Source of the DNA: an uncultured Acidobacteriota bacterium
Lineage (GTDB): Bacteria; Acidobacteriota; Thermoanaerobaculia; UBA5066; Gp7-AA6
NCBI GenBank assembly: GCA_963764715.1
Contig: CAVXTP010000018.1
Span: forward strand, 1-64,000
Reading direction: 5' to 3'
DNA length: 64,000 nt
A model generated the notes under the pieces. The model saw nothing but the letters and a program-made list of their open reading frames with translations. It made no database searches and had not been told where the DNA came from. The translations under genes were made by a program, and so were the position numbers. Shown here piece after piece: positions 33,669 through 49,439 of the stretch; the first letter of the stretch is position 1; every line of letters starts with the position of its first letter.

Positions 33669-33920
33669 ATGGCCATGGTGATTCGCGAGGATTGCATCAA
33701 CTGCGGCAGCTGCGAGCCGGCTTGCCCGAACGAGGCGATTTCGGCCGGCGACACGGTGTACCTGATCGATCGCGAGCGGTGCACGGAGTGCGTCGGCGCC
33801 TTCGACCATCCCCAGTGCGTCGATGCTTGTCCCATCGAGGGATGCATCGCGACCGACGCGGATCACCTGGAGTCGAAGGAGACTCTGCTGGCCCGATACC
33901 AGCAGCTGCACCCGAACTGA
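33669..33920 (+). CDS. 2x[4Fe-4S] ferredoxin, YfhL family
   Basis: CINCGSCEPACP..CTECVGAFDHPQCVDACP; GGAGG RBS. Confidence 0.92.
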   Translation: MAMVIREDCINCGSCEPACPNEAISAGDTVYLIDRERCTECVGAFDHPQCVDACPIEGCIATDADHLESKETLLARYQQLHPN

Positions 33921-33949
33921 CACCTCGTCGAGCCGGCGCGCTGACCGAA

Positions 33950-34128
33950 GTCCGACGTTCAACGACGTGCCGGCTTCGGACGGCGCCTATTCCTTCATCG
34001 AGGCGCTCGTCGCGTCCGGCGTCACCGCCGGCTGCGGCAACGGGAACTACTGTCCGGACGCCCCGCTGACTCGCCGGCAGATGGCCGTGTTCCTCTCGAA
34101 GGCGCTCGGCCTCCACTGGCAGAACTGA
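33950..34128 (+). pseudogene. C-terminal S-layer homology (SLH) domain remnant
   Basis: FNDVP..FIEALVASGVTAGCGNGNYCPDAPLTRRQMAVFLSKAL*, with no credible start or signal peptide. Confidence 0.7.
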
Positions 34129-34170
34129 GGCTGGCGGCACGTCCGAGAAGAGAACGGGAAGAACTGAAAG

Positions 34171-34196
34171 TGGTGGAGGCGGCGGGAGTCGAACCC
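34171..34196 (-). repeat. Copy of the tmRNA 3' end (distal att core)
   Basis: TGGTGGAGGCGGCGGGAGTCGAACCC; 25/26 identical to 49079-49104. Confidence 0.92.
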
Positions 34197-34324
34197 ATGG
34201 AATTCCCGTCAATTCCCGAGTGATTTCGACGCGCTCCCCGGACTCGTTCGTGTCGTCGTCCGCGTTGCCGGCCTTCGCGCGCTCGTGAGGGCCTCGTCGC
34301 CGACGAGAGAAGGCAGCCCCTGAA

Positions 34325-35167
34325 TCACTCCGGGCGCGGCACGGGCTCGAATTCGTACAGCGATGCGGCCAGACGCTTCAGCCCGCGATCTCGCGCAATG
34401 AGGTCGAGGTGGAGTGAGGTCCAGTCCGATAGCAACAACGTCTCGTTGCCGTGCCCGTCGTATGTCTTGAGGTAGCCCCCGCACGAATCGCACGAGTCGA
34501 TGCGAAGGCCGCCGTCTCCCTCGACGGTGAGGGCCGCGAGGCGCTGAGTATCGCCTTCACAGAACGGGCACGCGGTGCGCCGGAACTGCCAGCGGCTGCC
34601 GCAGCAGCCGCACGCCAGGAGCCGCTTGCGTCCCGGATCGGCGCCGACCAGCTGGGCCATGGCGGGAGCCGATCCGCACACCGGGCAGTAGGGGCGAAGC
34701 CACTTTTCGTCGTCGCGCCAGGCCTCGAACGCGGTCACGAGCGGCGCCAGGTACCGCGCGGCGGCCGTCCAGCCCAGGTAGCGCAGCAGCCCCGGCGACG
34801 GCGGCGCGAAGGACTCGTCGCCGAGCAGCCAGTCCCCGATCCGCCGCGGGGCCTCGGGCTCGCGGCGCAGGACGGCGTCCAGGGCGGCGAGGTCCGAGGC
34901 GAAGGAGTCCGGGGAAGGCTCCGATGCCAGCTTCGCGACGAGCGCCACGGCCGCCGTCCCCGCCGGCTCGAGGTCGACCGCGGCATCGGAGCCGCGCAGG
35001 AGCGGCACGCCGGCGAGAAAGTCGTTGCGGTAGTCGCCCCAGCACGGCACCGGTGCGCCGGCGGACGCGATCCCCGCCGCAGCGCGGTCGACTCGTGCGC
35101 AGAAGCCCGCGACCGCCCGCAGGTACGCGTGAGCCTCCAGCCAGCCGTCCCGGGTCCAGTGGCTCAA
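34325..35167 (-). CDS. fdhE: Formate dehydrogenase accessory protein FdhE
   Basis: CPVCGSAP, CGCC..W..RTACPFC, CDSCGGYLK, HLDLIA; TTG start overlapping the upstream stop. Confidence 0.88.
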   Translation of the reverse strand: MSHWTRDGWLEAHAYLRAVAGFCARVDRAAAGIASAGAPVPCWGDYRNDFLAGVPLLRGSDAAVDLEPAGTAAVALVAKLASEPSPDSFASDLAALDAVLRREPEAPRRIGDWLLGDESFAPPSPGLLRYLGWTAAARYLAPLVTAFEAWRDDEKWLRPYCPVCGSAPAMAQLVGADPGRKRLLACGCCGSRWQFRRTACPFCEGDTQRLAALTVEGDGGLRIDSCDSCGGYLKTYDGHGNETLLLSDWTSLHLDLIARDRGLKRLAASLYEFEPVPRPE

Positions 35168-37359
35168 TGTCCCTCGCTGGGCTCCGCCCGGGAGAGAACC
35201 GGCATGAGCCGGGCCGCCAGGCCGAAGAGAAAGATCGTCGCGGCGATCAAGCCGATCGAAACGCCCCACTCGAAGATCGACGGCACGTAGGCCCGGGGCG
35301 CGACCCAGGGCATCCGGCCGTGGAAGGTCATCGCGAAGAGGACGACGTTCATGCGGTTGTACACGACGCCGAGGACCGCGAGCAGGGCCGCGACGAAGAG
35401 CGCGTCGGGGCGCTCGCGGAGCGACCGGCGGGCCAGCATGAGGAGCGGGAGAACGCCGCCGAGGAGGATCTCGGCCGCGAAGGCCGGGCCCAGCCGCCCG
35501 GAGAAGGCGCTCGCGAGCTGGTTTCGAATTGCCATGTCCCCGAGGCGAAACACGAGGTAGACGAGGAGCGCCCAGAACGCGATCTGTCCGACCGCGGCGA
35601 GCCGCGTCATCTCGAGCGGGCGGCGCCACCCCTTCGCAATCCCCATGTCGATGAGGATCACGAGCGCGGTTCCGGCCACGATCGACGACAGGAAGAAGGA
35701 GACGGGCATCACGGGGGACCACCACTGCGGGGCGAGCAGGTTCGGCATCAGCAGGTACAGGGAGCCGAGCGAGCTCTGGTGCATCGTCGACAGCGTGACG
35801 GCGGCGATCGCGAGCATGATCGGCTCGGCCCGGTCGTCCCGCGCGCGAAAGAACCAGGCGAGGGCGCCGAAGATCACCGCCGTCGCAAGGGTGTAGAGGA
35901 GGTTGCGCGAAAGCATGTAGACGAACAGCGTCACCGCCGCCGCCACGTAGGCGCCGTTCCACCGCCGCCAGGCCGCCGCCGCCCGCTGGAATCCCCAGCG
36001 CTCGAAGGGAACGGGGAGGAACTCGAGCAGGAGGATCGTAACGTAGAGGCCGACGCACCACGAGACCTCGAACATGGCCGAGTGCTCCGGAGCCTGCAGG
36101 CCGAGCTGGTAGAAGTGCCAGGGCAGGCCGAGGTCGGCGACGAGCGTGACCGTCACGAAGGAATAGCTCAGGAGGCCCATCAGGACGGCCGTGCGGCCCA
36201 GCCCGTAAAGGTCCTTTCGCTGGAGGACGTAGATCACGCCGGCCATCGCGAACGCGCCCGCGGCCACCGCGATCCACACCAGGTCGAAGAGGATCCACAG
36301 GCCCCACGGGTAGGTGTCGGAGAGGTGCGTGCTGCCGCCGAGCCCGAGGGCGAAGCGCGCCACCATCGAGACGCCGCAGAACGCCATGAGCAGGAGGAGG
36401 ACCCAGTTGAAGGGGGTCATCAGCTCGTTCCGGAGAGGCTCGAATTCGACGTGGCCGTGGTCTCCGGAATGCTTCGACGCAGCCGATCCGTCCGCCGCCG
36501 CCTGAACCCGCTTCCGGAAGAAGGCGTACGCGGCGCCGAGCAGGGCGCCGACGGCCATCACGGCGGGGGGAACGGCGCCGAGCGCCGCCCTGGTGAAGGC
36601 CGGAAAGGGCTTCTCCCCGAACGTCGGGAAGCCGAGCTTCTCGAACGGCACGGTCGACAGGTACACGACGCTCGTCCCGCCCAGCTCCTTCTCTCCGTAG
36701 ACGTGATCGACGTATTTGTCGGGCCGGTCGGAGATCCGCTTGTGCGCGAGCGCCAGCATCTCGTCGCGGGTTCCGTAGCGCAGGGCGTCGGCGGGGCACG
36801 CCTTGACGCAGGCGGGAGTCGCGATGGTATCGAGGAAGCGCTTCGTCTCGTCGGGAGGGGCCGGCTGACCGTTGAACGCGATCGGCGCCGGCTGCGGGGC
36901 CCGGTCCGCGCAGTGCGTGCACTTCTCGATCTTCGGAGCGAGCCTGTCCCACTCCGCGGTCGGCACGTCCCAGGGACACGCCAGCATGCAGTAGCGGCAG
37001 CCGATGCACTTGTCCGCGTCGTAGGAAACGGGCCCGTCGGGTTGCCGGTAGAGCGCCGTCGTCGGACAGGCGGAGACGCAGCCCGGCTCCAGGCAGTGGA
37101 AGCACCGCCGCATCACGAAGGCGGAATCCAGGCCTCCCGGCTTCTGCGGGTTCTCCATCTCGTGAAACGAGATCAGGGTGTACGTTTTCGCGCTGAGCGT
37201 CGCCGGGTTCTGGAAGCCCAGTTGGGCCTGCAGCTCCGTCTCCTCGCCCTCGCGCTCGTTCCACTGCTTGCAGGCCACCTGGCACGCCCGGCAGCCGATG
37301 CAGTTGGCGATGTCGATCAGCGTCGTCCGGATCGGGCCGGCGGCCGCGGCGTGCGTCAC
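35164..37359 (-). CDS. Fused formate dehydrogenase Fe-S beta subunit and NrfD/HybB-type membrane anchor
   Basis: CIGCRACQVACKQWN, CFHCLEPGCVSACP, CIGCRYCMLACP, then YPWGLWI, DLGLPWHF, SAMFEV, STMHQSSLG; GTGA overlap with fdnG. Confidence 0.85.
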   Translation of the reverse strand: MTHAAAAGPIRTTLIDIANCIGCRACQVACKQWNEREGEETELQAQLGFQNPATLSAKTYTLISFHEMENPQKPGGLDSAFVMRRCFHCLEPGCVSACPTTALYRQPDGPVSYDADKCIGCRYCMLACPWDVPTAEWDRLAPKIEKCTHCADRAPQPAPIAFNGQPAPPDETKRFLDTIATPACVKACPADALRYGTRDEMLALAHKRISDRPDKYVDHVYGEKELGGTSVVYLSTVPFEKLGFPTFGEKPFPAFTRAALGAVPPAVMAVGALLGAAYAFFRKRVQAAADGSAASKHSGDHGHVEFEPLRNELMTPFNWVLLLLMAFCGVSMVARFALGLGGSTHLSDTYPWGLWILFDLVWIAVAAGAFAMAGVIYVLQRKDLYGLGRTAVLMGLLSYSFVTVTLVADLGLPWHFYQLGLQAPEHSAMFEVSWCVGLYVTILLLEFLPVPFERWGFQRAAAAWRRWNGAYVAAAVTLFVYMLSRNLLYTLATAVIFGALAWFFRARDDRAEPIMLAIAAVTLSTMHQSSLGSLYLLMPNLLAPQWWSPVMPVSFFLSSIVAGTALVILIDMGIAKGWRRPLEMTRLAAVGQIAFWALLVYLVFRLGDMAIRNQLASAFSGRLGPAFAAEILLGGVLPLLMLARRSLRERPDALFVAALLAVLGVVYNRMNVVLFAMTFHGRMPWVAPRAYVPSIFEWGVSIGLIAATIFLFGLAARLMPVLSRAEPSEGH

Positions 37360-40300
37360 GTGCGCCTCCCCGGGGGCCGGGATCTTTTCGCCGCCGGGCG
37401 CTCGGCCTTGACCACGTTGACGAGGCACGCCTTGGTCTCCTGGGTCCCCGCGCCGGGATCCGTGGCGTCGATCGTGAGGTGGTTGACGCTGGGACCGGTC
37501 GACAAACCCTGGAAGCCGAAGTTGTACGGCATCCAGACGATCGTGACTTCGCGGTCGCCGATCTTCAGCGCCTTCATGCGCGGCGTGACGAGGGCCTTGA
37601 CCTCGAGCTCACCGCGCGCCGACGAGACCCGGACCCAGTCCCCCGATTTCACGCCGAGCTTCTGGGCGAGGGCGAGCGGCATCTCCACCACCGGTTCGGG
37701 GACGAGCTCGTTCAGCCAGGGGATGTTCCGCGTCGTCGAGCCGCCGCACCAGTGTTCGGCGACCGTCGACGTCATCAGCACATAGGGGTACTTGTCGGCG
37801 GTGCCGATCGGCTGATGCGTTGCGACGCGCGGGTACTTCAGCATCGGGTTGCTCTTCACGCCCGGATGCAGGACGTTTTCCACCGGGCTCTCGACGGGCT
37901 CGTACATCTCCGGCAGCGGGCCGTCCTTCGGCACGTAGGCCACGTCGCGCGGATACCCCGGATGCTTCTCGTCCGGGTCCGAGTAGACGGCCGCGAAGAG
38001 TCGCCCGACGCCCTCCGCGCCCAGGTGGAAGGGGCGCTTGCCATTCGGCGTGTCCGGCCCGTCGGTCAGGACGGGGACGTCCGGAACGTCGTATCCCGTC
38101 CAGCGCTTCGCCTGCTCGTCCCACCAGACGATAGGTTTCGAGCCCGGATAGGGCTTGCCGTTCCGGTCGCAGGAGGCCCGGTTGTAGAGGATGCGCATGT
38201 TGTTGGGCCATGTCCACCCGAAGCCCGGGTAGAGGCCGAGGCCTCCCGGATCCGTTCGCGAGTCGCGGCGCTTCGAAAGATTCTCGCCGTTGGCGAAGAC
38301 CCCCGCGTAGATCCAGGCGCCGGACGACGTCGAACCGTCCGCCCGAAGATCGCCGACCTTGCGGACGAGATCGCCCGCCTTCAGTCCGGTCTCCGGGTTG
38401 TCGCGCAGGGCGTACCCGTTGATCTCGCGTAGCACGTCCTCGGCCGTGGTGTAGGTCCAGAAGGCCTTCTTGATGCTCTCGTCCCTCGGCTCCGTCGAAT
38501 CCTTGACCAGATCGCGCACCTTGCGGAAGACGCGGTCCACGATCTCGCCGTCGGGCCGGGCCTGCCCGGGCGGCTTCACCGCGGCGTGGCGCCACTGCAC
38601 CATCCCGCCCGAGTTGCTGATGGTGCCGTTCTTTTCCATGAAGAACGCGGCGGGCAGCAGGATCACTTCGGTCGCGATGGTCTTCGGGTCGACGCCGGGC
38701 CGCCGCCAGAACGCGGCGGTCTCGGTCTCCCAGATCTCCTGGACCACGAGGGTCTCGAGCTTCGCCATCGCGTCGAACGTCAGCGTGAGGTTGGGCACGG
38801 TGACCGCGGGGTTCTGGCCGACGATCCAGAGGACCTTCAGCTTCCCGGCGAGGGCATCCTCGAACATCGGCATCGTCCCGTAGTCCTTGGAGGCGTTCCG
38901 TTTGGGCAGCCAGCCATAGGCATAGTCGTTCTCGGCGGTCGCCGCCTCTCCGTAGAACGCCTTGAGCGTGTTGACGAGGTACCGGCTGTCGGCGATCCCG
39001 TTCTTGCGCACGTAGTCGTAGATCGTCGGCTCGGCGCTCGACGGCGAGTTGAGGTAGCCCGGCATGTAGTTGTAGAGCACCGCCATGTCGCAGGCGCCCT
39101 GCACGTTCGGCTCGCCGCGCAGCGCGTTGACGCCGCCGCCCGGCTTTCCGATGTTGCCGAGCAGGAGCTGCAGGATCGTGAACGAGCGGATTCCCTGCAC
39201 GCCGGTCGTGTGCTGGGTCATCCCGAGGGCGTAGAGAATGGATCCCGGCCGGTTCTTCGCCATCATCTCCGCGATATGCCGGATCTGGTCGGCCGGAATG
39301 CCGGTGATCTGCTCGCCCGTCTCGAGCGTGTACCGCGAAACGAAGGTCTTCAGGCGCGAGAAGACGCAGTGCGGGTCATCCAGGCTCCTGGCGACACGCG
39401 GCTTGCCCTTCGCGTCGAGCTGGTATCCCCAGCTCCGGGTGTCGTACTTGTGGTGCTCCGCGTCGTACCCGCTGAAGACGCCATCCTTGAAGTCGAAGGC
39501 CTCGTCGCCGAGGTAGAGGGCGTTCGTGTGGTTCACGACGTAATCCTCGTCGTACAGCTCGTGGACGAGGATGTGGTTGATCATGGTGTTCTGGAAGGCG
39601 GCGTCCGTGCCGGGCCGAATGCGCGCGTACACGTCCGCCCCCGCGGAGGTCCGGGTGAATCGCGGATCGACGTGAATGATCTTCGCCCCGTTCTCCTGTG
39701 CCTTGCGGATCCACTTGTAGGCCATGGGGTGGTTTTCGGCGACGTTGCTGCCTTCCACCAGGATCGTCTTGCAGTTCTGCAGGTCGAGCCAGTGGTTGGT
39801 CATCGCCCCCCGCCCGAACGAGGCCCCCAGACCGGGGACCGTGGGGCTGTGTCAAAGTCGGGCCTGGTGCTCGACGTAAGCCAGGCCGAGCAGCCGGGCC
39901 GCCTTCTGGAAGAGGTAGCACTCCTCGTTCGTGTTCTGAGCGCCGCCCAGAAAGCCGATCGCGTCCGTCCGATTGACGGGAACCTCTTTGTCGCCGACCT
40001 TCTCGGTGGCGATCCAGGTCGCGTCGCGCGTCTTCCGGATCTTCTGCGCGACCCGCTCGACCGCGTCGTCCCAGGTGATGTCCTCCCAGTGGTCGCTGCC
40101 CGGCGCCCGGTAGCGGGGCGTCTTGAGCCGGCTCGGGGAAGTGTGCGTCGCGAACATGGAAATGCCTTTGACGCACAGCGATCCGCGGTTCACGATGTGG
40201 TCGTAGTCGCCCTCCATCGTCAAGAGCTTGCCGTCGCGGACCGCGGCGATCATGCCGCAGCCGCACGAGCAGAAGTTGCAGGACGTCGTGAACTCGCTCA

Positions 40301-40496
40301 CGTCCGAAAGCTTCAGCTCTCGCACGGCGGCTCTCATCGCGGGCACGTCGATGAACCCGTCGAGCGCGAGCCCCGCGCCACCGCAGACGGTCAACCGCAA
40401 CAAGTCGCGGCGGTTGACCGAAGTCGACGCTCGCGGCCGACTCTCGTCTGCCCGAAGAGAGAGGTCCGGGATCGGAGTCTCCGGAGGTTTATCCAC
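37356..40496 (-). CDS. fdnG: Selenocysteine-containing formate dehydrogenase alpha subunit (Tat-exported)
   Basis: Two track ORFs join in frame through UGA at 39854-39852: EHQARL-U-HSPTVPGLGASFGRGAMTNHW. NRRDLL Tat motif, CNFCSCGC, ALRGEPNVQG. Confidence 0.93.
39821..39854 (-). promoter_or_regulatory. Sec UGA codon plus bacterial SECIS hairpin
   Basis: UGA CAC AGC CCC AC GGUCCCC-GGUCU-GGGGGCC: stem-loop with a GGUCU loop just 3' of the UGA. Confidence 0.85.
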
Positions 40497-40537
40497 GAGG
40501 TTGCCTCCGTGCGATTGCCTGCGCTCCGGCCAGCATC

Positions 40538-40556
40538 GATTGCGACATTCGCAATC
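40538..40556. promoter_or_regulatory. Perfect inverted repeat upstream of fdnG
   Basis: GATTGCGA-CAT-TCGCAATC, with extra half-sites nearby. Confidence 0.5.
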
Positions 40557-40871
40557 CCTCCCTCGCTACGCGCAATCCAGAAGGCGGCTCCGGATCGGAG
40601 CCGACGGCAACGAAACCAGTTTACCGTACGGCCATTGTCGGGTGGCAGGTTCCGTGAATGCTGCGGCCGGGCGCCGGACCCTGAGAGCGAGGTGGGCAGT
40701 TCTCTCCGGACCGGGCGACGAAGGAGATCCCGATGGAGGAGGCCCGCACGCCTCCCGCACCCGCTGACCCGCTAAGCGATCGTCCGGTGTTGGAATCCTG
40801 GCGCTCCGAAAGCCGCAGCGCCGTGATGCCTTTGGCGCCGCACCGGAGGGCCTTGCGCAACGACCTCGACT

Positions 40872-40887
40872 TGATTCAATCGCATCA
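40872..40887. promoter_or_regulatory. TGATGC-N4-GCATCA box inside island B
   Basis: TGATTCAATCGCATCA; candidate -10 TAGGGT at 40910-40915. Confidence 0.78.
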
Positions 40888-40966
40888 TCTGCTCGCCATC
40901 CCCGAGCCATAGGGTGTTGGTCTTGGTCTCGTTAATCGCCCCAAGAGGGCACTCAGGAGGAGAACA

Positions 40967-41548
40967 ATGAAAAGAATCGGATCCTGGATGACGGCCGCCT
41001 GGGCCGCTGGCGTACTGTGCCTGGCAACCGCGGCACTGGCCCAGGCTCCCGGGTCTCCGCCGGAGACGGTCTCGTCGGTCACCGAAACGGTCAAGGCGAC
41101 CGTGGTGAAGATCGACCGGAAAACGCGCGAGGTCACGCTCAAAGAGGATGACGGCCACGAGTACACCTTCATCGCCGGCGACGAGGTGAAGAATCTTGAT
41201 CAAGTCAAGAAAGGCGACCTGGTCACGACGTCATACAAGGAGAGTCTCGTTTACGAAGTGAAGAAGGGTGGCAAAGCCATCGGCGCAGAGACGACCACGA
41301 CGATTGCGCGTGGGAAGCCCGGCGACGTGCCGGCGGGCATCTGGGCGAAGCGGACCACGATGACCGTGGCGATCACGGCGATCGACCCCAAGGCTCCGAC
41401 GGTCACCTTCAAAGGACCGCAGGGGAACACGCGCACGATCAAGGTGCGGAACCCCGCGAATCTCAAGGGCGTCAGCGTCGGGGACACGGTCGAAATCACC
41501 TGGGTCGAGGCGGTCATGATCAAGGTCGAAAGGGCGCTCGGGAAGTGA
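40967..41548 (+). CDS. Secreted protein with two small beta-barrel (OB-like) repeats
   Basis: AGGAGG RBS, signal peptide; repeats 'ATVVKID..VTLK..GD.V' and 'AITAID..VTFKGP..GD.V'. Confidence 0.75.
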   Translation: MKRIGSWMTAAWAAGVLCLATAALAQAPGSPPETVSSVTETVKATVVKIDRKTREVTLKEDDGHEYTFIAGDEVKNLDQVKKGDLVTTSYKESLVYEVKKGGKAIGAETTTTIARGKPGDVPAGIWAKRTTMTVAITAIDPKAPTVTFKGPQGNTRTIKVRNPANLKGVSVGDTVEITWVEAVMIKVERALGK

Positions 41549-41777
41549 TTCCGGGCCCGGACTCCGCCGGGACCCACGGCCGTAGCCACTGAGAAACAGA
41601 GGGGCGGGGAGTAAGGGGGGGCCGTCCAGCAGCCCGTCCAGCTCTCCAAAGGCCCCGTCCATGGCGGCCGCGTCGGTCACGTCGACATGGGTGACATCTG
41701 CCGAATCGACATGTTTTCGGGCGCGGCGAAGGAGAGAACTGGTAGAGAATCTGCCCAGCGAAAGAAAGGAGAATTCA

Positions 41778-42650
41778 ATGGAGGCAAGAAGGGGAGGCTT
41801 CTCGGTCATCCTCGGGGCCGGACTGCTGGCGGCGTCCGGAGCCATCGCGACGGCTCAGCAGCCGAGCGTCACGAAAATCACGCAGACGGGACAGCCCGCG
41901 ATGACGTCGAGCACCCGCGTCGTCAAGGCCACCGTGGTCAGCGTGAACGGCAACAGAGTCGTCGGCGAAGACGCCACCGGCCATGCGACGGAGTACACGA
42001 TCCCGGAGGGCTTCAAGTTCCAGTTCGAGGGCAGGGACATCGGCGTCGCCGAGCTGAAGCCCGGAATGCACGTTACGGCCACGATCACGACGACGACCAC
42101 CACGACACCCGTGTGGGTCACGGAAATAAAAACGGGCAAGGTCCTCGTGGTCTCGGGCCACAGCATCATCGTCCGAGGGCCGCAAGGGAATCGCTTGTTC
42201 TCGAACAAGGACGCGGAGCAACGGAATGTCACGGTCATGCGCAACGGGCAGCAGGTCTCGTTGAGCGACCTGCGTGCCGGCGACATCTTCACGGCCATCA
42301 TCGTCACGGACGAGGCGCCGAAGGTCGTCTCCGAGCGCGAGGTCCAGGCCATGGCCCACGCGGCGCCCCAGCCCGCTTCGGCTCCGGCCGCTGCTCCCGC
42401 CGCCGCCCCCACCACTGCCCCCGCCGCTGCACCCGCGGAGGCTCCCGCGGCTGCCCCCGCGGAGGCTCCCGCGGCTGCCCCCGCGGAGGCTGCAGCCGCC
42501 CCCACGGAGGCTCCCGCCGCTGCACCGGCCGCTGCTCCGGCCGCCGAATCGCCCGCGCCGGCGAGCGGGTTTCCGAGTTGGCTCCTGTGGCTACTCATAC
42601 TGATCGTGATTCTCGTCGTCGTGCTCATTCTCCGCCGCCGCAAGTCCTGA
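41778..42650 (+). CDS. Exported protein with Pro/Ala-rich repeat linker and C-terminal TM anchor
   Basis: AAGGAG RBS, signal peptide, (PAEAPAAA)n, hydrophobic tail ending RRRKS. Confidence 0.75.
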   Translation: MEARRGGFSVILGAGLLAASGAIATAQQPSVTKITQTGQPAMTSSTRVVKATVVSVNGNRVVGEDATGHATEYTIPEGFKFQFEGRDIGVAELKPGMHVTATITTTTTTTPVWVTEIKTGKVLVVSGHSIIVRGPQGNRLFSNKDAEQRNVTVMRNGQQVSLSDLRAGDIFTAIIVTDEAPKVVSEREVQAMAHAAPQPASAPAAAPAAAPTTAPAAAPAEAPAAAPAEAPAAAPAEAAAAPTEAPAAAPAAAPAAESPAPASGFPSWLLWLLILIVILVVVLILRRRKS

Positions 42651-43009
42651 CGTCGAACCGTCTCCACGGACCGCCGTGCCGCCGGCCCTTCGGGGCCGGC
42701 GGTCACCGGCGGCGCCAACTTCCGGTTTCGAATTTCCGCGAGGCCCCGCGCGGACGCAGAGGACTCCCACGACTCGGTGGTCCTGGCGAGCGAACTTGAG
42801 TGGTGAGCCGTGCAGAACTCGAACCTGCACGGTCCTTCCTCTGTGGTTAATTCGAGAGGCGAGCAGCGACGCGACCCTGTCCGGTCTGCACAAGACCCGT
42901 TGTGGATGCGTTCGCGGCGCCCGCCCTTCGCCAGGAACGCGGAGGACGGGGCTGTGTTGCCGACGCCAGCGAGATCAAGAACCCGGGTCACCCGCTTTCG
43001 GTTGGGTCC

Positions 43010-43396
43010 TCAGGCCTGACCGATCCCGGGGATGTGCTGGTTGTCTTCCTCGGTCCGCTCGAGGAACGGGCGGATCTCGACCGGCGTCCGACAGGCGACG
43101 GCACCCTTGCGCCCCCACTCCAGTGCCTCGTCCAGGTTCGCGCATTTCAGAATAATGAAGCCGCCGACGTGCTCCTTGGTCTCCATGTACGGCCCGTCGG
43201 TGACGACCACCTTGCCGTCGGGCTGCGCCCGCAGGGACTTCGCGCTGCTGGCCGGGTAGAGGCCGGCACCGAAAATCCTGGCACCGGCAGCGACCAGCTC
43301 ATCGTTCATCACGTCGATCTCGCGGATCATCGCTTCGGTCACGGTGGATGGGTCGAAATTGTCGGGTAAGAAACTCGTCCACAGATAGAGCGGCAT
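43010..43396 (-). CDS. YciI/DGPF-family protein
   Basis: VTDGPYMETKEHVGGF..EALEWG..VEIRPF; AAGGAG RBS. Confidence 0.85.
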   Translation of the reverse strand: MPLYLWTSFLPDNFDPSTVTEAMIREIDVMNDELVAAGARIFGAGLYPASSAKSLRAQPDGKVVVTDGPYMETKEHVGGFIILKCANLDEALEWGRKGAVACRTPVEIRPFLERTEEDNQHIPGIGQA

Positions 43397-43699
43397 GTTT
43401 TCTCCTTTTCCTGTGTCTTCGGGCCGGGCGTTTGCCCTGCCTTCACTCCATCGACGAACGGCCGGACCGGAATTCGACAACTCGTCCAAGAAAATCTTAC
43501 CTTTCGACTTGGGGATCGTTGATCGAGGAGGTGACTGGCTTGGATCGGAAACCCTGGCTGGGGGAGAGAGAGTCTCCGCTGCCATCTCCCGCGAAGCGGC
43601 CGGCCTCACTGTCCGCGTCTTTGTCGGTGTCCGGTGGTGGAGCGTCTTCCTCGGTGGTGGCCGGCGAGATGGTGGCGGCGGAGCCAAACGCCTGAAAGG

Positions 43700-43723
43700 A
43701 AAAGGGCCGAGAAACTCGGCCCT
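43700..43723 (-). terminator. Intrinsic terminator just 3' of the internal tmRNA-end copy
   Basis: AGGGCCGAG-AAA-CTCGGCCCT stem with a U-tract on the minus strand. Confidence 0.7.
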
Positions 43724-43742
43724 CACCTCGATGAACCCAAGT

Positions 43743-43768
43743 TGGTGGAGGCGGCGGGAGTTGAACCC
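43743..43768 (-). repeat. Copy of the tmRNA 3' end (junction att core)
   Basis: TGGTGGAGGCGGCGGGAGTTGAACCC; 26/26 identical to 49079-49104. Confidence 0.95.
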
Positions 43769-44073
43769 ATCTGATTCTTCTGAATTCCTGAATGATTTCG
43801 ACGTACTCCCCCGATTTGTCCGCCTCCTTGTCCGTGTCGCCCGGCCGCATAGCAAACACGCGGAGACAAGCCGTGGTAGTCGGTAAGGCTCACTACCTGC
43901 CGGTGCATTGCGACGACCTCAGCCGGAGCGCGTCTGCCGGCACTGTCTCCTCATGAAGGCTCGGCAGAGTTGCGGAAGGCCCTGCCCCGGCAGTCGTCGT
44001 TCTACGTCCCACCGCGTTGAAAAGACGGCTCCCCACCGGCGATCCTCCCGCCGGGCATCCTGCCCGCCGGACG

Positions 44074-44835
44074 TCACCTTGCGGCGCGGTTCGGCCTCTG
44101 CCGCGCGAGGAGGAGAAGGCGCATCAGCCCGTCGACGTCGGCCTGGCCCCGGAGGTAGTAGGACGCGGCGGACGCGGGACTTGCCCCCACACGGATGGTG
44201 AGAAAGCGCGCAGGCTGCTTGAGAGCGAAGACATCTTCATCCGTTTCATCGTCTCCCACGTAGATCGCGGTGTCACATCCGAGACGCTCGCGCTCCCTCT
44301 CGAGGGCCATACCCTTGTGAGGGGCGCCCCTCGGGAGGAGGTTGATGACCAGAGCGCCGCCGACGACTCGGACATCGTTCAAAGCCGCCGCCGCCTCCAT
44401 GATCGCCGCTCGTGCCTTCTTCTTGTCACGCGACTGACGGTAGTGGACCGAAATCGAAAAGACCTTGTCCTCGATGCTCACTCCTCGAATGGGCGAGAGC
44501 CTCTCTTCCAACAGCGGCCGCCAGCGTTCGATCTCCTCCTTCAGCCGTGCCGAAGCCCCCCAGGGTTCGATTCCGTGGTTGCCGACGACCCCGTGCACCG
44601 GGATACCGCGCAGTCGCTCCAGGACGCTGGTCCGCGCGCGGCCGGAGATCACGACGCATGAATAAAGATTCGTGAGATCACCCAGCAGCCGCGACGTTGC
44701 CGGGCGAAGATGCGCTCGTTCCGGAAGAGTCACGATCGGAGTGAGGGTCCCGTCGAAGTCGAAGCCGAGCAGCACGTTCGATCGGGCAAACTGCTCGACG
44801 ATTCGCCGATGGGCCGGCAACAGGATGTTCTTCAT
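44074..44835 (-). CDS. otsB: Trehalose-6-phosphate phosphatase
   Basis: FDFDGTL, ISGR, GNHG, HKG, YVGDDETDED. Confidence 0.92.
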   Translation of the reverse strand: MKNILLPAHRRIVEQFARSNVLLGFDFDGTLTPIVTLPERAHLRPATSRLLGDLTNLYSCVVISGRARTSVLERLRGIPVHGVVGNHGIEPWGASARLKEEIERWRPLLEERLSPIRGVSIEDKVFSISVHYRQSRDKKKARAAIMEAAAALNDVRVVGGALVINLLPRGAPHKGMALERERERLGCDTAIYVGDDETDEDVFALKQPARFLTIRVGASPASAASYYLRGQADVDGLMRLLLLARQRPNRAAR

Positions 44836-47093
44836 GGAGAGTGCTGCGCCACCGGAACGAGATGATCGGTCAGGCGGCCTGTGAGTCGGTCACGGCTGCG
44901 GAGGCGAGCGGCATCGACGAGCATCCTCCCCGCCCAGCGATAAACATTGAACTCGGAGAGGAAGGCCCGCATGGACCGCATGCGGTCCCCCTGCTCTGCC
45001 GGAGACATGGCGAGGGCGGCTGCTAGGGCAGAGCTCGCCTGGTCGAAGTCGTAAGGGTTGACGATCAGCGCCTCGGTCAGCTCACGCGCCGCGCCGGTGA
45101 ACTGACTCAGGACCAGGACGCCGCGCTCGTCCTCCCGGGCCGCGACGAACTCTTTGGCAACCAGATTCATGCCGTCGTGGAGGCTGCTCACGTAGCACAG
45201 GTCGGCTGCCCGGTAGTACCGAAACACGGTCGGGGGCTCGTGGTGGGTTCGCCGCAGGACGATCGGACGGTAGTTTCCCTGACTGAACCGATCGTTGATG
45301 CGCGCGGCCACACGTTCCACGTTCTCGTTGAGCTGCTGGTAGCGCTGGATGACGGTTCGACTCGGGGCCGCAAGCTGAACGAAGGTAAATCGACCGCGGA
45401 ATTCCGGAAACCGTTCCAGCAAGCGCTCGACGGTGAGGAGCCGCTCCTCGATTCCCTTCGTGTAGTCGAGGCGGTCCACGCCAATACCCAGGAGGGCGTC
45501 CGGGGCCAGCCCGAGCTCCTGGAAAAGGCTCCTTCGGCACTCTTCGGCGGGCGGAGCCGTTTTCGACCACCGCACGGGCCATTCGAGCGAGATCGGGTAG
45601 GGACGCACCAGCGTGCTTCGCCCGTGCTGGACGACCGCGTTCTGCTCCCGGTCGATCCGGGCCTCGAGCAGCCGATCCACGGAATCCACGAAGTTATTGC
45701 AGTGGGATTGGGTGTGAAAGCCCAGGATGCTCGCGCCGAGCATTCCCTCGAGCAACTCGTTGCGCCAGGGGCAGATGCTGAACAGCTCCGAGTTGGGCCA
45801 GGGGATATGCCAGAACATGATCACGGTCGCCCGGGGCAGCCGCTCACGAATGAGATGGGGTACGAGGGCGAAGTGATAGTCCTGAACGAAGACGATCGGG
45901 TCTTCCGAGTCCACCTCCGCGCAGAGAGCGTCCGTGAACTTCTGGTTGACGGCCTGATAGTGCTTCCAGTCCTCGCTTCGGAAGACGGGGCGGGCATGTG
46001 CGAGGTGGCAAAGGGGCCAGAGACCCTCGTTGGCAAAGCCGTAGTAGTAACCCTCCTCTTCTTCGGGAGAGAGCCAGACCCGCCTGAGCAGGTAGGACTC
46101 TTCGCCGGGCGGCACGCGGATCCGCCCGTTCTTGTCTGCCGTCTGCCGGTCCGCGGAACCGCCCCCGTGGGCGATCCAGACTCCGGAGCAGGCCCGCAGG
46201 ACCGGCTCGAGCGCGGTGACGAGACCGCTCGCGGGATGAACGACGACGACACCGCCGTCCTCGGTCCGCTCATGAATATACGGTTCGCGATTCGCGACGA
46301 TGACGACTCTCTCGAGGTGGAGGTACCGGTTGAGCGTCTGCTTGAGTCGCTGCGGCGTCCAGTCGCCGCCTTCAAGGTCGGCTTGCTTCTCGGCAACGAT
46401 GCGATCGACGAGCTCGCGGACATCCCCGAGGATGGGCCGGAACTCGGGGTGAGGCGTACCGCTTCGGAGGAAGCTTCGGAGCTCTTTGCTCCAACCGCGC
46501 CAGGACAGCCGGGCCGCGATGGCAGTCACGGCAGAGGCGGCCACCGCGAGGAACCCGAAAGCCAGGAGCAGGAAGTTCCGGGTCTTCGCTTCTCGTCGTT
46601 CGACGAAGCTCAGATCGTGCACGAGGACGACAAATCCCAGCGGCTGATCTCCATCGGACACGGGCATGGCGCTGACGTGGACCTTGCCCCCGGGCAGCGG
46701 CAGGACGCTCTTCCAGGGGTGCCAGCCGGTTGCGGGTTCGCCGGCGGCGGGACGGACATGTTTGGCGAGTTCTTCGCAGCCGAGCTGCTTGGGGTAGTCC
46801 GGCGTTCGCGTCAGCAGTGTGAGGTCTGCCGTGCACGCCGCGGCCGCCATGATGCGCTCATCGTGAGTGATCTCGACGAGCAGGTTCCGCAAGTCGGCCC
46901 GCTGCTCCTTGTGCCAGTGCGAGATCAGGGCCTGGCGGGCCCCGCTCACCGCGAGTTGCGCGCGCAGGCTCACGTCCTTCTCGAACCAGCCGCGCGTGGT
47001 CTCGTTGACGGTGACGGAGGCCACCCAGGTGAGAAGCCCGAGCCCGAGGATCAGAGCGACGGCGAATTGGAATGCGCGACCCATGCCGGCCAT
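44832..47093 (-). CDS. otsA: Trehalose-6-phosphate synthase with an N-terminal TM-periplasmic-TM extension
   Basis: GLWPLCH, QDYHF, HIPWP, DRLDYTKG, DGMNLVAKEF. Confidence 0.92.
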   Translation of the reverse strand: MAGMGRAFQFAVALILGLGLLTWVASVTVNETTRGWFEKDVSLRAQLAVSGARQALISHWHKEQRADLRNLLVEITHDERIMAAAACTADLTLLTRTPDYPKQLGCEELAKHVRPAAGEPATGWHPWKSVLPLPGGKVHVSAMPVSDGDQPLGFVVLVHDLSFVERREAKTRNFLLLAFGFLAVAASAVTAIAARLSWRGWSKELRSFLRSGTPHPEFRPILGDVRELVDRIVAEKQADLEGGDWTPQRLKQTLNRYLHLERVVIVANREPYIHERTEDGGVVVVHPASGLVTALEPVLRACSGVWIAHGGGSADRQTADKNGRIRVPPGEESYLLRRVWLSPEEEEGYYYGFANEGLWPLCHLAHARPVFRSEDWKHYQAVNQKFTDALCAEVDSEDPIVFVQDYHFALVPHLIRERLPRATVIMFWHIPWPNSELFSICPWRNELLEGMLGASILGFHTQSHCNNFVDSVDRLLEARIDREQNAVVQHGRSTLVRPYPISLEWPVRWSKTAPPAEECRRSLFQELGLAPDALLGIGVDRLDYTKGIEERLLTVERLLERFPEFRGRFTFVQLAAPSRTVIQRYQQLNENVERVAARINDRFSQGNYRPIVLRRTHHEPPTVFRYYRAADLCYVSSLHDGMNLVAKEFVAAREDERGVLVLSQFTGAARELTEALIVNPYDFDQASSALAAALAMSPAEQGDRMRSMRAFLSEFNVYRWAGRMLVDAARLRSRDRLTGRLTDHLVPVAQHSP

Positions 47094-47142
47094 TGAAGCA
47101 CAGAGGCTTTGGGGCAACAACCGAATCTGTTAGCTTCCGTGC

Positions 47143-48909
47143 GTGCGCCTGGAAGACCTCGGCCTCATCGGCAATTGCCAGTTCTCGGCGCTCATCCATC
47201 GCACGGGCGAGGTCGTCTGGTGCTGCCTGCCGCGCTTCGACTCGGAGCCGGTCTTCTCGACGCTGCTCGACCACGAGGGCGGCGGACGGTTTGCCGTCGG
47301 CGCGGTGGACGGAGCGGCCGGAGTCCAACGCTACGTCGAGAATACGAACGTTCTCGAGACCAACTTCCGAACGGAAGGCGGTTCCTTCCGAGTTCTGGAC
47401 TTTGCTCCGCTCTTCATTCAGCACGGGCGGGTCTTCCATCCCACGCAGCTTCTCCGGATCGTCGAACCGGTGGAGGGAACTCCGCACATACGAGTGAACT
47501 GTGATCCGCGGATCGGCTGGTCGAAGGCCCTCCCCGCACAGCTTCGGGGCTCCAACCACGTTCGCTTCGACGGCTTCGCGAGTCCTATGAGACTCACGAC
47601 CGACGTGCCGCTCTCCTACCTTGGCGGTACACCCTTCGCTCTCTCGCAGCGCCGGCATTTGGCTCTCACGTGGGGACCGCCGATCGAAGAGCCCCTCCCC
47701 GCGCTTTGCGACCGCTTCCTGGGCGACACCGTTCGGTACTGGCAGCGATGGGTCAAGCAGTGCAACATCCCTCCCCTTTATCAACGGGAGGTCATTCGTT
47801 CAGCCCTGGCGCTCAAGCTTCACTGCTTCGAGGACACAGGCGCCATCGTCGCGTCCATGACGACGTCCATTCCCGAAGCGGCAGGCAGCGGGCGGACCTG
47901 GGACTACCGGTATTGCTGGCTGCGGGACGCCTACTACGCCCTCGGCGCACTCCGTCGGCTTGGCCACTTCGAGGAGCGCGAGAATTTCACTCAGTACCTG
48001 CTCAACATCGTTGCCGAGGCGCCGGACCTGAAGCTCTCCCCGCTCTACCGTGTCGACGGGACCTGCGATCTCGAGGAACGGGTCCTCGACAGCTGGCCCG
48101 GCTATGGCGGCGACGGGCCGGTCCGCGTTGGCAATGGTGCCGCCCGGCACGTTCAGAACGACATCTACGGCGAGATGGTTCTCGCCCTGACGCCGGTTTT
48201 TCTCGACGAGCGGTTTACCGCGGAGCGCTCGCAGGCAACCCTCGACCTGCTGGAGCGGTTGGCCCGGAGGGCCATCTCGGTCGTGGGGACTCCCGACGCC
48301 GGCATTTGGGAATACCGCACGGAGTGGAAGCCGCAGACCTTCTCGAGCCTCATGTGCTGGGCCGCCGTGGATCGGATGTCCCGTGTTGCCGCTCAACACG
48401 CACCCGGCCTGGAAGCGGAATTCCGGAGCGCCTCGGCTCGCATTCGCGAGGAGATCACCGACAAGGCGTGGAATCTGGAACTCGGGGCCTTCGTTGCGAC
48501 CTACGGTGGAGGAGACCTCGATGCGTCGCTCCTCCAGATGGCAACTCTGCATTTACTGCCGGCCGACGACCCGCGGCTGCGAGGAACGGTCGACGCGATC
48601 TGGAAGGGGCTCTCGAGAGACGGTTGGCTGTTCCGCTATCGGCTCGACGACGGCTTTGGTCGACCGACCGTCGCATTCATCATCTGTACGTTCTGGCTCG
48701 TGGAAGCTCTGGCCTCGACCGGGCGCGTGAACGAGGCCAAGACGGTCATGGACCGCATTCACTCAGCCCTTTCGCCGCTCGGCCTCCTCTCCGAAGACTA
48801 CGAGACCTCCGGCCTGCGAATGTGGGGCAACTTCCCGCAGGCGTATTCGCACGCAGGCCTCATCCTCGCGGGCTTCGCCGCGTCGCCCCGGTGGGCGGAA
48901 ATACTCTGA
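47143..48909 (+). CDS. Glycoside hydrolase family 15 (trehalase-like)
   Basis: CLPRFDS, WDYRYCWLRD, DAGIWE, GNFPQAYSH. Confidence 0.9.
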   Translation: MRLEDLGLIGNCQFSALIHRTGEVVWCCLPRFDSEPVFSTLLDHEGGGRFAVGAVDGAAGVQRYVENTNVLETNFRTEGGSFRVLDFAPLFIQHGRVFHPTQLLRIVEPVEGTPHIRVNCDPRIGWSKALPAQLRGSNHVRFDGFASPMRLTTDVPLSYLGGTPFALSQRRHLALTWGPPIEEPLPALCDRFLGDTVRYWQRWVKQCNIPPLYQREVIRSALALKLHCFEDTGAIVASMTTSIPEAAGSGRTWDYRYCWLRDAYYALGALRRLGHFEERENFTQYLLNIVAEAPDLKLSPLYRVDGTCDLEERVLDSWPGYGGDGPVRVGNGAARHVQNDIYGEMVLALTPVFLDERFTAERSQATLDLLERLARRAISVVGTPDAGIWEYRTEWKPQTFSSLMCWAAVDRMSRVAAQHAPGLEAEFRSASARIREEITDKAWNLELGAFVATYGGGDLDASLLQMATLHLLPADDPRLRGTVDAIWKGLSRDGWLFRYRLDDGFGRPTVAFIICTFWLVEALASTGRVNEAKTVMDRIHSALSPLGLLSEDYETSGLRMWGNFPQAYSHAGLILAGFAASPRWAEIL

Positions 48910-49078
48910 GGAAGTCCTTCAGCCGCCGGTGATTCGTGATGCGGGCTGATGGACAAGACGCGTCCTCGCCGGCCGATCCTCGCGGTGCGCGAGCAGAAGG
49001 CGAGCCAATTCGGGGACCCAACATCGCGGAGCCACACCTCTATGAGAAGGGCGGCTCTGAACTGGAATGAACGTAGTG

Positions 49079-49439
49079 TGGTGGAGGCGGCGGGAGTTGA
49101 ACCCGCGTCCGGAAGCGCGGCGGGAGAGGCCACTCCATGCTCAGCCTCTTCTTGGTTCTCGCCCTGCCGCCTCGAGAAGAGGCAAAACGGCGGCAGGGCA
49201 ACCCCGAATTTGTTTCGCCGCTCCGTCCGGGGATCCGGAGCCGCTACACCCGAATTTCGCGACGTCGGCCGAAGCGCGTCGGGTGCGCTATCCGGCCAAC
49301 GAGGCTACTTAATTAAGCAGCCAGAGCGAAGTTGCTGTTGTTCGCAGCTACTATTTTTCACCCTGCTTTTACGAGGAGGGGTGAGACCTCGGCATGCGAC
49401 CTCTCGCGTCATCGTCCCCGTCGAAGCCGTTTCGCCCCC
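49079..49439 (-). ncRNA. ssrA: tmRNA
   Basis: 5' GGGGGCGAAACGGCTTCGACG; tag ORF ANNSNFALAA* (49345-49313); 3' GGGTTCAACTCCCGCCGCCTCCACCA. Confidence 0.97.

Follow-up and report, generated by a model that had tools for sequence, protein, structure and literature searches.

Structure of the tmRNA Locus

We analyzed a 64-kb window (the whole stretch of DNA under study, on contig C18; coordinates below are window positions unless a contig is named) from the genome of an uncultured Acidobacteriota bacterium, a metagenome-assembled genome (MAG) that is 96.8% complete and is called G000 here, other G-numbers denoting the genomes compared with it. In this window, copies of the 3′-end of the transfer-messenger RNA (tmRNA) gene, ssrA, delimit two consecutive units that carry metabolic operons. 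The window contains a single, functional tmRNA gene at 49079-49439 (reverse strand), found by ARAGORN and Rfam (RF00023, 190.2 bits), with the tag AANNSNFALAA. The last 26 nt of this gene (TGGTGG...GAACCC; 49079-49104), which we refer to as the core, recur at two displaced positions on the same strand according to pattern matching: at 43743-43768 without a mismatch (26/26), and at 34171-34196 with one mismatch (25/26, the difference being located in the T loop). The 26-nt end had no match in any of 100 dinucleotide shuffles.

The three cores bound two units, which we call unit B (5.3 kb) and unit A (9.5 kb); along the strand of the tmRNA gene, tmRNA is followed by unit B, a core, unit A, a further core, and the chromosomal flank, the last containing a DUF1028 gene (32347-33342) and a reading frame with an SLH domain (33823-34128), both on the forward strand and assigned by Pfam. 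G000 therefore shows the arrangement that defines an island, that is, an intact target gene whose 3′-end is repeated, displaced and in direct orientation, at the far border. A preliminary description of this DNA had reported three ssrA 3′-ends delimiting two units free of recombinases, and this was confirmed by the pattern match and by the six-frame scans presented below.

Rfam also reported partial tmRNAs at both displaced cores, aligning 34171-34238 (26.6 bits) and 43743-43812 (20.9 bits) to both termini of the tmRNA. We considered an RNA gene at these ends, possibly a tRNA-like minihelix made of a 5′ GGGG strand, a T arm, and a 3′ strand; its 5′ part overlaps the homology to an integrase tail (see below), no covariation was found, and the intervening hairpin is the self-complementary GGAATTC/GAATTCC sequence without compensatory changes, so that an RNA gene is unsupported.

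Conserved Ends of the Units

Each displaced core is adjoined by a conserved stretch at the distal end of its unit, the distal (P) arm, located at 43769-43863 in unit B and at 34197-34291 in unit A (both on the reverse strand). An nhmmer profile built from 14 arms matched them with 107.2 and 91.2 bits, respectively, and the arm of unit B was also delimited by alignment with integrase 3′-ends of a sister family (see below). The distal ends of the two units (34158-34269 and 43730-43841) share 76% identity over 112 nt, and for the 95 nt past the core none of 2000 shuffles reached the observed alignment score; the homology of the distal ends that had been proposed in the preliminary description is thus well founded. 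The arm of unit B contains two direct TGTCCG repeats (43817-43834; CGGACA on the tmRNA strand) and, in imperfect form, the inverted repeat GGAATTC/GAATTCC. In unit A the repeats are partly decayed, and this arm shares 72-85% identity with arms in nine other genomes of the genus.

The consensus of the aligned arms is gcAACGCGGACAAcgACACGGACAAAccGGGGGAGTAGcTCGAAATCATTCAGGAATTCGCAAGAATTCCAT, followed by the core; it includes two CGGACA(A) direct repeats, 12 nt apart, and the GGAATTC/GAATTCC inverted repeat. The CGGACA(A) pair is kept in the 14 arms and in integrase-bearing relatives, and the two copies are putative arm-type repeats of the attachment (att) site of a heterobivalent integrase. The conservation ends at about the same point in all copies, ~70-95 nt upstream of the core, with unit-specific sequence past it. 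No other copies of the arm were found in G000 by blastn and nhmmer (the 14-arm profile matches three known sites only), and the strict double repeat is unique in the genome as a whole, being located in the arm of unit B.

Four arm copies carry GCC in place of GGG directly before TTCAACTCCCGCCGCCTCCACCA (TTCAAC), and because of this the true identity block is 23 nt long, from the T loop to the CCA end. The block begins at the canonical sublocation for islands in tRNA-like genes, the T loop, and runs to the 3′-end of the gene; judged by its extent, it would match the classical picture of a tyrosine integrase that crosses over in the T loop.

The proximal (P′) arms, on the tmRNA side of each unit, are more diverse. 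That of unit A (43367-43742, reverse strand; delimited by a terminator scan and motif positions) has TGTCC motifs at 43610 and 43628, that is, CGGACA-like motifs ~110-140 nt from the core, and a strong intrinsic terminator at 43702-43724; its 40-64 nt beside the core match the P′ arms in G034, G032, and G011 at 83-93%. That of unit B (48910-49078, reverse strand), read directly from the sequence, is non-coding, lies directly behind the tmRNA 3′-end, and contains a weak hairpin and a GGACAAGACGCGTCC motif; no match to it was found in the other arrays. Across units, the proximal arms begin with ~20 nt that are alike, followed in most of them by a GGGCCG...CGGCCC-TTTT terminator.

Arrays with the Same Ends in Related Genomes

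Using the distal arm alone as query, we found it in 13 of the 44 genomes in the genus, and an additional Acidobacteriota MAG also has it; arm and core together are present in one to four copies per genome, clustered near the tmRNA gene. We delineated ten arrays (including that of G000) with about 18 units, all directly downstream of the tmRNA gene and in direct orientation, each consisting of one to four units. G019 has four units (16.3, 3.1, 4.2, and 14 kb); G000, G011 (10.3 and 3.2 kb), and G032 (3.6 and 2.8 kb) have two; and single units are found in G006 (~6.7 kb), G030 (~3.1 kb), G002 (~2.7 kb), G034 (~17 kb), G012 (with a decayed distal core), and G016 (0.92 kb, with a second arm further out). 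The cargo ranges from the ParDE pair that alone fills the 0.92-kb unit to 17 kb, and includes arsenic and fluoride resistance genes, further ParDE pairs, rhodanese regulators, PhoD, a sigma-54 activator block, phospholipase D, short-chain dehydrogenases, a molybdoenzyme, a cytochrome c peroxidase, and a pair of genes for an extracytoplasmic function (ECF) sigma factor (DUF6596) and a YCII protein. A family with the same ends and variable cargo, as the preliminary description had expected, is therefore present in relatives.

The cores adjoining the tmRNA gene are perfect in G000, G019, and G011, and the most distal cores are decayed. One 10-kb cargo is found as unit 1 in G011 and as unit 4 in G019 (92.9% identity over 10,128 nt), which fits the addition of each new unit next to the tmRNA gene. 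Of the nine relatives compared, G016 is the closest to G000 (85% identity upstream and 90% at the DUF1028 flank); in place of units B and A, it has only the ParDE unit between the tmRNA gene and the DUF1028 flank. The sigma(DUF6596)-YCII block adjoins the tmRNA gene in G002 and G012 and is located past the arrays in G006, G032, and G034; the start of unit A (proximal arm and YCII gene) is orthologous to part of this block and to the region past the array in G011.

A different arrangement was found in G027 (L051/L052, C4:45808-70657), in which a 25-kb nonribosomal peptide synthetase (NRPS) cluster lies between the tmRNA gene and a ~67-nt repeat of the 3′ part of tmRNA, and is followed by a sigma(DUF6596) gene; none of its 13 open reading frames (ORFs) encodes an integrase, and the arm found in G000 is absent from it. 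A separate observation concerns toxin-antitoxin genes: a ParD/ParE-type pair lies directly behind a core in four genomes, G016 (L044), G019 (L038), G006 (L043), and G030 (L045).

We also screened larger collections of contigs. An 18-nt degenerate arm motif produced chance matches among genome contigs (the best nhmmer arm score among 80 loci was 19.7 bits, confined to the motif) and was discarded. A stricter arm-core pattern matched 7 loci in genome contigs: five in known genomes, one in an additional Acidobacteriota MAG, whose arm is genuine, and one in a contig labelled Kofleriaceae, whose arm is a different one. The same pattern matched 1 short metagenome contig, and the arm had 0 matches in viral contigs.

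Absence of Recombinases from the Arrays

We searched 113 open frames of at least 70 aa overlapping 34100-49150 (6 real genes and 107 others) against Pfam, and none of the 113 matched an integrase, resolvase, or transposase family. A six-frame search of the whole of G000 with PF00589 gave 6 matches, none of them on C18; the set includes the two best-scoring matches (XerC/XerD size), one by tRNA-Leu, one by tRNA-Pro, and a frameshifted integron integrase. Likewise, no recombinase was matched by 108 ORFs from nine arrays (110 were picked by their G+C content at third codon positions, GC3, and two straddling locus borders were not scannable); the PF00589 six-frame search of five relatives gave 29 matches, none inside an array; and tblastn of five integrases against all ten arrays reached a best E-value of 0.15. 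The units of G000 thus lack a recombination or transfer module of their own, as is characteristic of cis-mobilizable elements (CIMEs), and unit B has almost no non-coding space that could hold a decayed gene.

Two candidates for a hidden or helper recombinase were rejected. The conserved 406-aa protein encoded at 50056-51276 has no Pfam or NCBIfam family; as an observation in its own right, this gene is conserved directly upstream of CutA and tmRNA in the related genomes examined. The other candidate is a C-terminal integrase fragment beside a tmRNA core in G011 (C6:8410-9061, L050), which is not a helper because it is truncated and has a different context, behind tRNA-Met. Locus L050 consists of tRNA-Met and two ~200-nt mini-units, each ending in a copy of the tRNA-Met 3′-end, followed by a tmRNA 3′ core with a terminator, CGGACA repeats, and the integrase fragment; it looks like a second stacked site with mixed cores.

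Homology of the Distal Arm to Integrase Genes

The truncated integrase of G011, used as query, led to a sister family (genus g2), represented by G037, G041, and G051. At all three loci, a 397-413 aa PF00589 integrase (80 bits) ends ~45-57 nt upstream of a displaced core, and each displaced core is a copy of the tmRNA 3′-end of the sister family itself. The integrase genes terminate with the codons AACACGGACACAACACGGACACCCGGGGG, made up of two ACGGACA arm repeats, and this terminus aligns with the arm repeats of the integrase-less units; indeed, the P arm of the G000 type aligns with the integrase 3′-end, the spacer, and the core of the three sister-family elements, which is the relatedness of att sites to those of an autonomous element by which CIMEs are recognized. 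Judging from these alignments, the arm is probably the 3′ tail of such an integrase gene plus the spacer, with everything upstream replaced by cargo. Since the homologue of the arm in the sister family is the 3′-terminal part of an intact integrase gene, with a displaced core directly behind it, the G000 units appear to be integrase-deleted derivatives of tmRNA-specific integrative elements.

An autonomous member carrying an integrase, predicted in the preliminary description, is thus found (at 3/3 loci), but in the sister family and not in the genus itself. The same description had named decayed integrase fragments inside each unit as evidence that would speak against a family of non-autonomous cassettes. 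None appeared in the six-frame scans, but the arm itself appears to be the tail of an integrase gene; since the same piece is present in all units, a remnant exists only as one uniform short tail.

Native Origin of the Cargo

The otsB-otsA-treH block of unit B (44067-48913) shares 83.6% identity over 4856 nt with a block in G011, and OtsA orthologues (79-88% identity) are encoded away from tmRNA in G034, G011, G062, and G021. The trehalose block of G011 lies between genes whose G000 orthologues stand 3.8 kb apart on C9, and the ancestral trehalose site, judged from this one relative, is C9:20600-24400 (L230). Similarly, the formate dehydrogenase (FDH) operon of unit A (~34335-40436) shares 82.3-83.5% identity over ~6.1 kb with operons in G006, G032, and G019, where the operon lies between a SulP permease gene and a gene for a 694-aa protein. 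Both of these genes are found on C10 in G000, with a GH63-like gene between them; the ancestral FDH site, judged from the three relatives, is C10:194900-199360 (L229), and now contains genes for a 1037-aa GH63/MGH1-like hydrolase and a PepSY protein, and small ORFs. G000 has one copy each of the FDH and trehalose operons, and they are absent from the ancestral loci. No recombinase was found at either ancestral site, and neither locus holds a copy of the arm. The homology to the relatives ends within a few nt of the operon ends. Comparison of the genomes indicates that both cargo operons are native to the genus, being chromosomal residents in relatives and lying between att arms at ssrA in G000.

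Proposed Origin of the Array and Alternatives

We propose that the locus is a tandem array of two non-autonomous, integrase-deleted, CIME-like islets at the 3′-end of ssrA, laid down by a tmRNA-specific tyrosine integrase; for this reading of origin and architecture we estimate a probability of about 0.7. Each islet would have arisen by site-specific recombination of a circular element whose attachment site contained the last 23-26 nt of tmRNA, with the crossover in or after the T loop. Every new insertion would restore the tmRNA gene and shift the older copy of its end downstream, in which case unit B was inserted after unit A. The recombinase would be a heterobivalent tyrosine integrase of the family that is intact at tmRNA in the sister family; its body would have been lost from every unit examined in the genus, leaving the ~70-95-nt arm (arm repeats and spacer), and the proximal arm would supply a terminator behind the core. 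Movement of the units would be possible only with a cognate integrase provided from elsewhere, or by accretion with an autonomous relative.

Several observations weigh against this proposal. The identity of the cargo to that of relatives (82-84%) equals that of the flanking chromosome; such cargo is not of foreign origin, and the presence of native operons between the arms is not accounted for by the ordinary integration of a foreign element. Unit A has decayed arm repeats. The homology of the proximal ends claimed in the preliminary description stands for ~20 nt beside the core and for a hairpin, both common to the two units, but beyond these the ends (~49020-49078 and 43672-43742) are weakly alike, and 8 of 2000 shuffles reach their alignment score. 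Neither the PF00589 search nor a strict motif search revealed an integrase gene in G000 bearing these arms or this core. Integrases of the g2 type are present in the genus, with 24 matches in 14 of the 44 genomes, and none of the 24 is at tmRNA; we fetched 14 of these loci, of which 8 are adjacent to genes for tRNA-Pro, Ser, Lys, or Gln and none contains the tmRNA core. At two of the 14 loci an ACGGACA doublet also adjoins the tRNA gene, and because of these two tRNA-associated loci we regard the arm motif as a trait of the integrase family, whose members differ in their core targets. Finally, no excised circle, empty site, or population polymorphism was visible in public sequencing runs, which offered shallow short contigs only (the best run contained 0.27 of the sampled words and yielded short, low-depth Logan contigs, uninformative either way). 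Mobilization in trans, which the preliminary description had put forward, is accordingly a conjecture for G000, which has no cognate integrase and no further copy of the arm.

One alternative, which we consider possible but unlikely, is that the units are fixed relics: old islands that lost their integrase, are immobile and vertically inherited, and differ among genomes through deletions and ordinary rearrangements, not through cassette traffic. Since the divergence of the cargo equals the genome background, the units may indeed be old and fixed; the decay of distal cores and arms, the lack of a cognate integrase in G000 or at tmRNA in the genus, and the YCII module that unit A has in common with the ancient sigma-YCII block of relatives all agree with this. 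However, the cores adjoining tmRNA are perfect in G000, G019, and G011; the short arm is the same in all units and stops at one common boundary, not at the random end points of deletions; G000 and G016 share no unit although their flanks are 85-90% identical; and the unit order in G011 and G019 fits repeated proximal insertion, all of which speaks against this alternative. The native cargo suggests a different and rather doubtful possibility, namely that minimal arm pairs act as cassette borders that recruit resident operons, which a trans-acting integrase then exchanges among strains; ssrA of this genus would then be a standing site of capture and exchange for resident operons (here the only FDH-N operon and the only copy of the trehalose cluster), a lambda-type counterpart of the integron for operon-sized cargo. 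Both operons are genus-native and missing from their ancestral loci in G000 (FDH on C10 and trehalose on C9), their homology to relatives breaks off almost exactly at the operon ends (to within a few nt), none of the ~18 units has an integrase, and the 25-kb NRPS cluster of G027 is also integrase-less behind tmRNA. On the other hand, no capture mechanism is visible and the ancestral loci have no arm copy, no helper integrase was found, and an old sigma-YCII unit that later received gene insertions is an equally good reading of unit A.

The remaining two alternatives have far less in their favor. An origin by an integron integrase or XerC/D, with the tmRNA T loop as a secondary site, is very improbable. 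The genus has a conserved integron integrase (TIGR02249, 435 bits), and the T loop, when read on the opposite strand, is GTTGAAC, in agreement with the integron core-site consensus, GTTRRRY; but the unit borders are 23-26 bp direct repeats with arm-type repeats, unlike attC-like inverted repeats, the identity boundary is on the other side of the GTT, and it is the 3′-end of another integrase, of the lambda type, to which the arm is homologous. Moreover, in G011, G032, and G006 (L060-L063) a distance of 445-480 kb separates the integron integrase gene from the tmRNA gene, both being on one contig, and the integron integrase gene of G000 is located on another contig (C17:9405-10631) and is split over two frames by an apparent frameshift. 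The term "integron-like", applied to the locus in the preliminary description, therefore holds as an analogy only, the borders being direct copies of the tmRNA end and not attC sites. It is even harder to credit an assembly artefact, in which the units of this MAG were wrongly joined at the 26-bp repeats. The joins at 34171, 43743, and 49079 rest on the assembly of a MAG and on the same architecture in independent genomes, and no public read or contig bridges them; but the layout of tmRNA, units, and arm plus core recurs in at least 10 independent assemblies, several of them with only 2-3 contigs, the 26-bp repeat is shorter than the usual assembly words, and the arms on either side of each core are unit-specific. 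Because the architecture recurs in this way, an assembly error is unlikely.

Comparison with Known Systems

As far as the cited accounts describe them, stacked integrase-less islands at ssrA are of a kind already described in Dehalococcoides, whose ssrA-specific genomic islands (McMurdie et al., 2011; PMC3146451) are tandem islands downstream of ssrA with a 20-bp repeat and a conserved upstream motif; 16 of 31 islands have a serine-recombinase module, and for the 15 without it the authors suggested either cis-mobilizable elements that move by accretion or a fixed state (PMC3146451). The islands resemble the G000 array, according to that account, in their tandem arrangement behind a single tmRNA gene, the 3′ direct repeat and upstream motif, the metabolic cargo, and the presence of islands without an integration module. 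They differ in their recombinase, which is reported as a large serine recombinase (DsiB) present in about half of the islands, whereas the relatives of the Acidobacteriota units encode a tyrosine integrase that is present in none of the ~18 units of the genus; and in their cargo, described as low-GC foreign genes in Dehalococcoides as opposed to genus-native operons here. No resolvase or recombinase family indicating a DsiB-type module was found in the window or in the 108 ORFs of the nine arrays.

CIMEs were described from the tandem accretion of elements related to ICESt1/ICESt3, two integrative and conjugative elements (ICEs), in Streptococcus thermophilus (Pavlovic et al., 2004, as cited in PMC3146451; the concept is given in ICEberg 2.0, PMC6323972). 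By these secondary accounts they share with our units att sites related to those of an autonomous element, the loss of recombination and transfer modules, and the tandem arrangement at the integration site. The CIME concept, however, rests on experiments on excision and transfer after ICE accretion, whereas the G000 units are known from their sequence, have no ICE nearby, and target ssrA instead of fda.

The tycheposons of Prochlorococcus (bioRxiv 10.1101/2020.12.28.424599) are presented in that preprint as tyrosine-recombinase elements at tRNA and tmRNA genes, with successive insertions and degenerate remnants further in. They are similar in that older insertions are pushed inward, with partial tRNAs further in, and in their nutrient-metabolism cargo; by the same account they carry an integrase and often replication genes, and their remnants are fragmented, unlike a uniform integrase-less family with conserved arms. 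Islander and TIGER catalog islands in tRNA and tmRNA genes (PMC4383910, PMC12424338) in which, as these sources put it, the target is split and restored, a displaced 3′ fragment marks the far end, and tyrosine integrases are usual. Both are described as defining islands by the integrase gene, so that integrase-less units would be missed or merged; in general, island finders that require an integrase will miss such arrays.

What is particular to the Acidobacteriota arrays is the survival of a tyrosine-integrase tail as the arm, the lack of an integrase in the examined arrays of the genus, and the native operons as cargo. They are a clean case, with traceable ancestry of the att arm, of how integrative elements leave integrase-less, att-bounded blocks that pile up at tmRNA, and they extend such arrays to soil Acidobacteriota. 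Because the blocks hold the sole copies of relocated native operons, a tmRNA hot spot can reorganize core metabolism, besides importing foreign genes. If the units prove to be mobilizable, the loading of cargo between att sites could be studied in them as a natural system.

Genes in Units A and B

Gene calls are based on GC3 analysis, Pfam, and NCBIfam. Unit B contains three genes: the trehalose-phosphatase gene otsB (44074-44835, reverse strand; PF02358 and TIGR00685, 94.3 bits, above the cut-off); the gene for trehalose-6-phosphate synthase OtsA, a GT20 enzyme with an N-terminal extension (44832-47120, reverse strand; PF00982, 394.7 bits, and TIGR02400); and a gene for a TreH-like, GH15 trehalase-like hydrolase (47143-48909, forward strand; PF00723 and PF19291, and NCBIfam NF041084 with 304 bits, below the cut-off).

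In unit A, the gene nearest to the proximal arm encodes a YCII-family protein (43013-43366, reverse strand; PF03795 and translation), which is orthologous to the YCII protein of the sigma(DUF6596)-YCII block behind tmRNA in relatives, with 74-86% nucleotide identity to G002, G034, G032, G019, G006, and G012. Two forward-strand genes follow. The one at 41775-42650 has no Pfam family, and its translation predicts a secreted protein that is anchored in the membrane by its C-terminus and has a linker rich in Ala and Pro; the linker is encoded by a 12-nt periodic repeat (42355-42568, 13 overlapping copies), and an ORF opposite this gene looks spurious and was dismissed. The other, at 40967-41548 (GC3 of 0.82), encodes a protein of no assigned family with a weak CusF-like stretch (PF11604 below the cut-off, and no NCBIfam match).

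The rest of unit A is occupied by the FDH operon, all on the reverse strand. The alpha subunit of formate dehydrogenase-N, with a twin-arginine translocation (Tat) signal, is encoded at 37356-40496 (TIGR01553, 824.8 bits, above the cut-off). Its gene has one in-frame TGA codon at 39852-39854, a predicted selenocysteine in the motif RLUHSP, and reading through with TGA as U gives a single internal U, at residue 215; a hairpin resembling a selenocysteine insertion sequence (SECIS) lies behind this codon at 39799-39857 (RF01989, 47.5 bits, below the gathering threshold). The codon and the hairpin together mark this island-borne subunit as a predicted selenoprotein. The operon further encodes a fused protein of an iron-sulfur (FdhB/HybA-like) and an NrfD-type membrane subunit (35164-37428; Fer4 families, PF03916, and NCBIfam), and an FdhE-like accessory protein (34325-35290; PF24859 and PF24860 below the cut-off, and TIGR01562 with 62 bits, also below the cut-off). 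Past the array, the SLH-domain frame that adjoins the last core has dozens of nucleotide-level relatives throughout G000 (on C21, C16, C12, C6, and other contigs), and belongs to a large family of SLH-protein genes.

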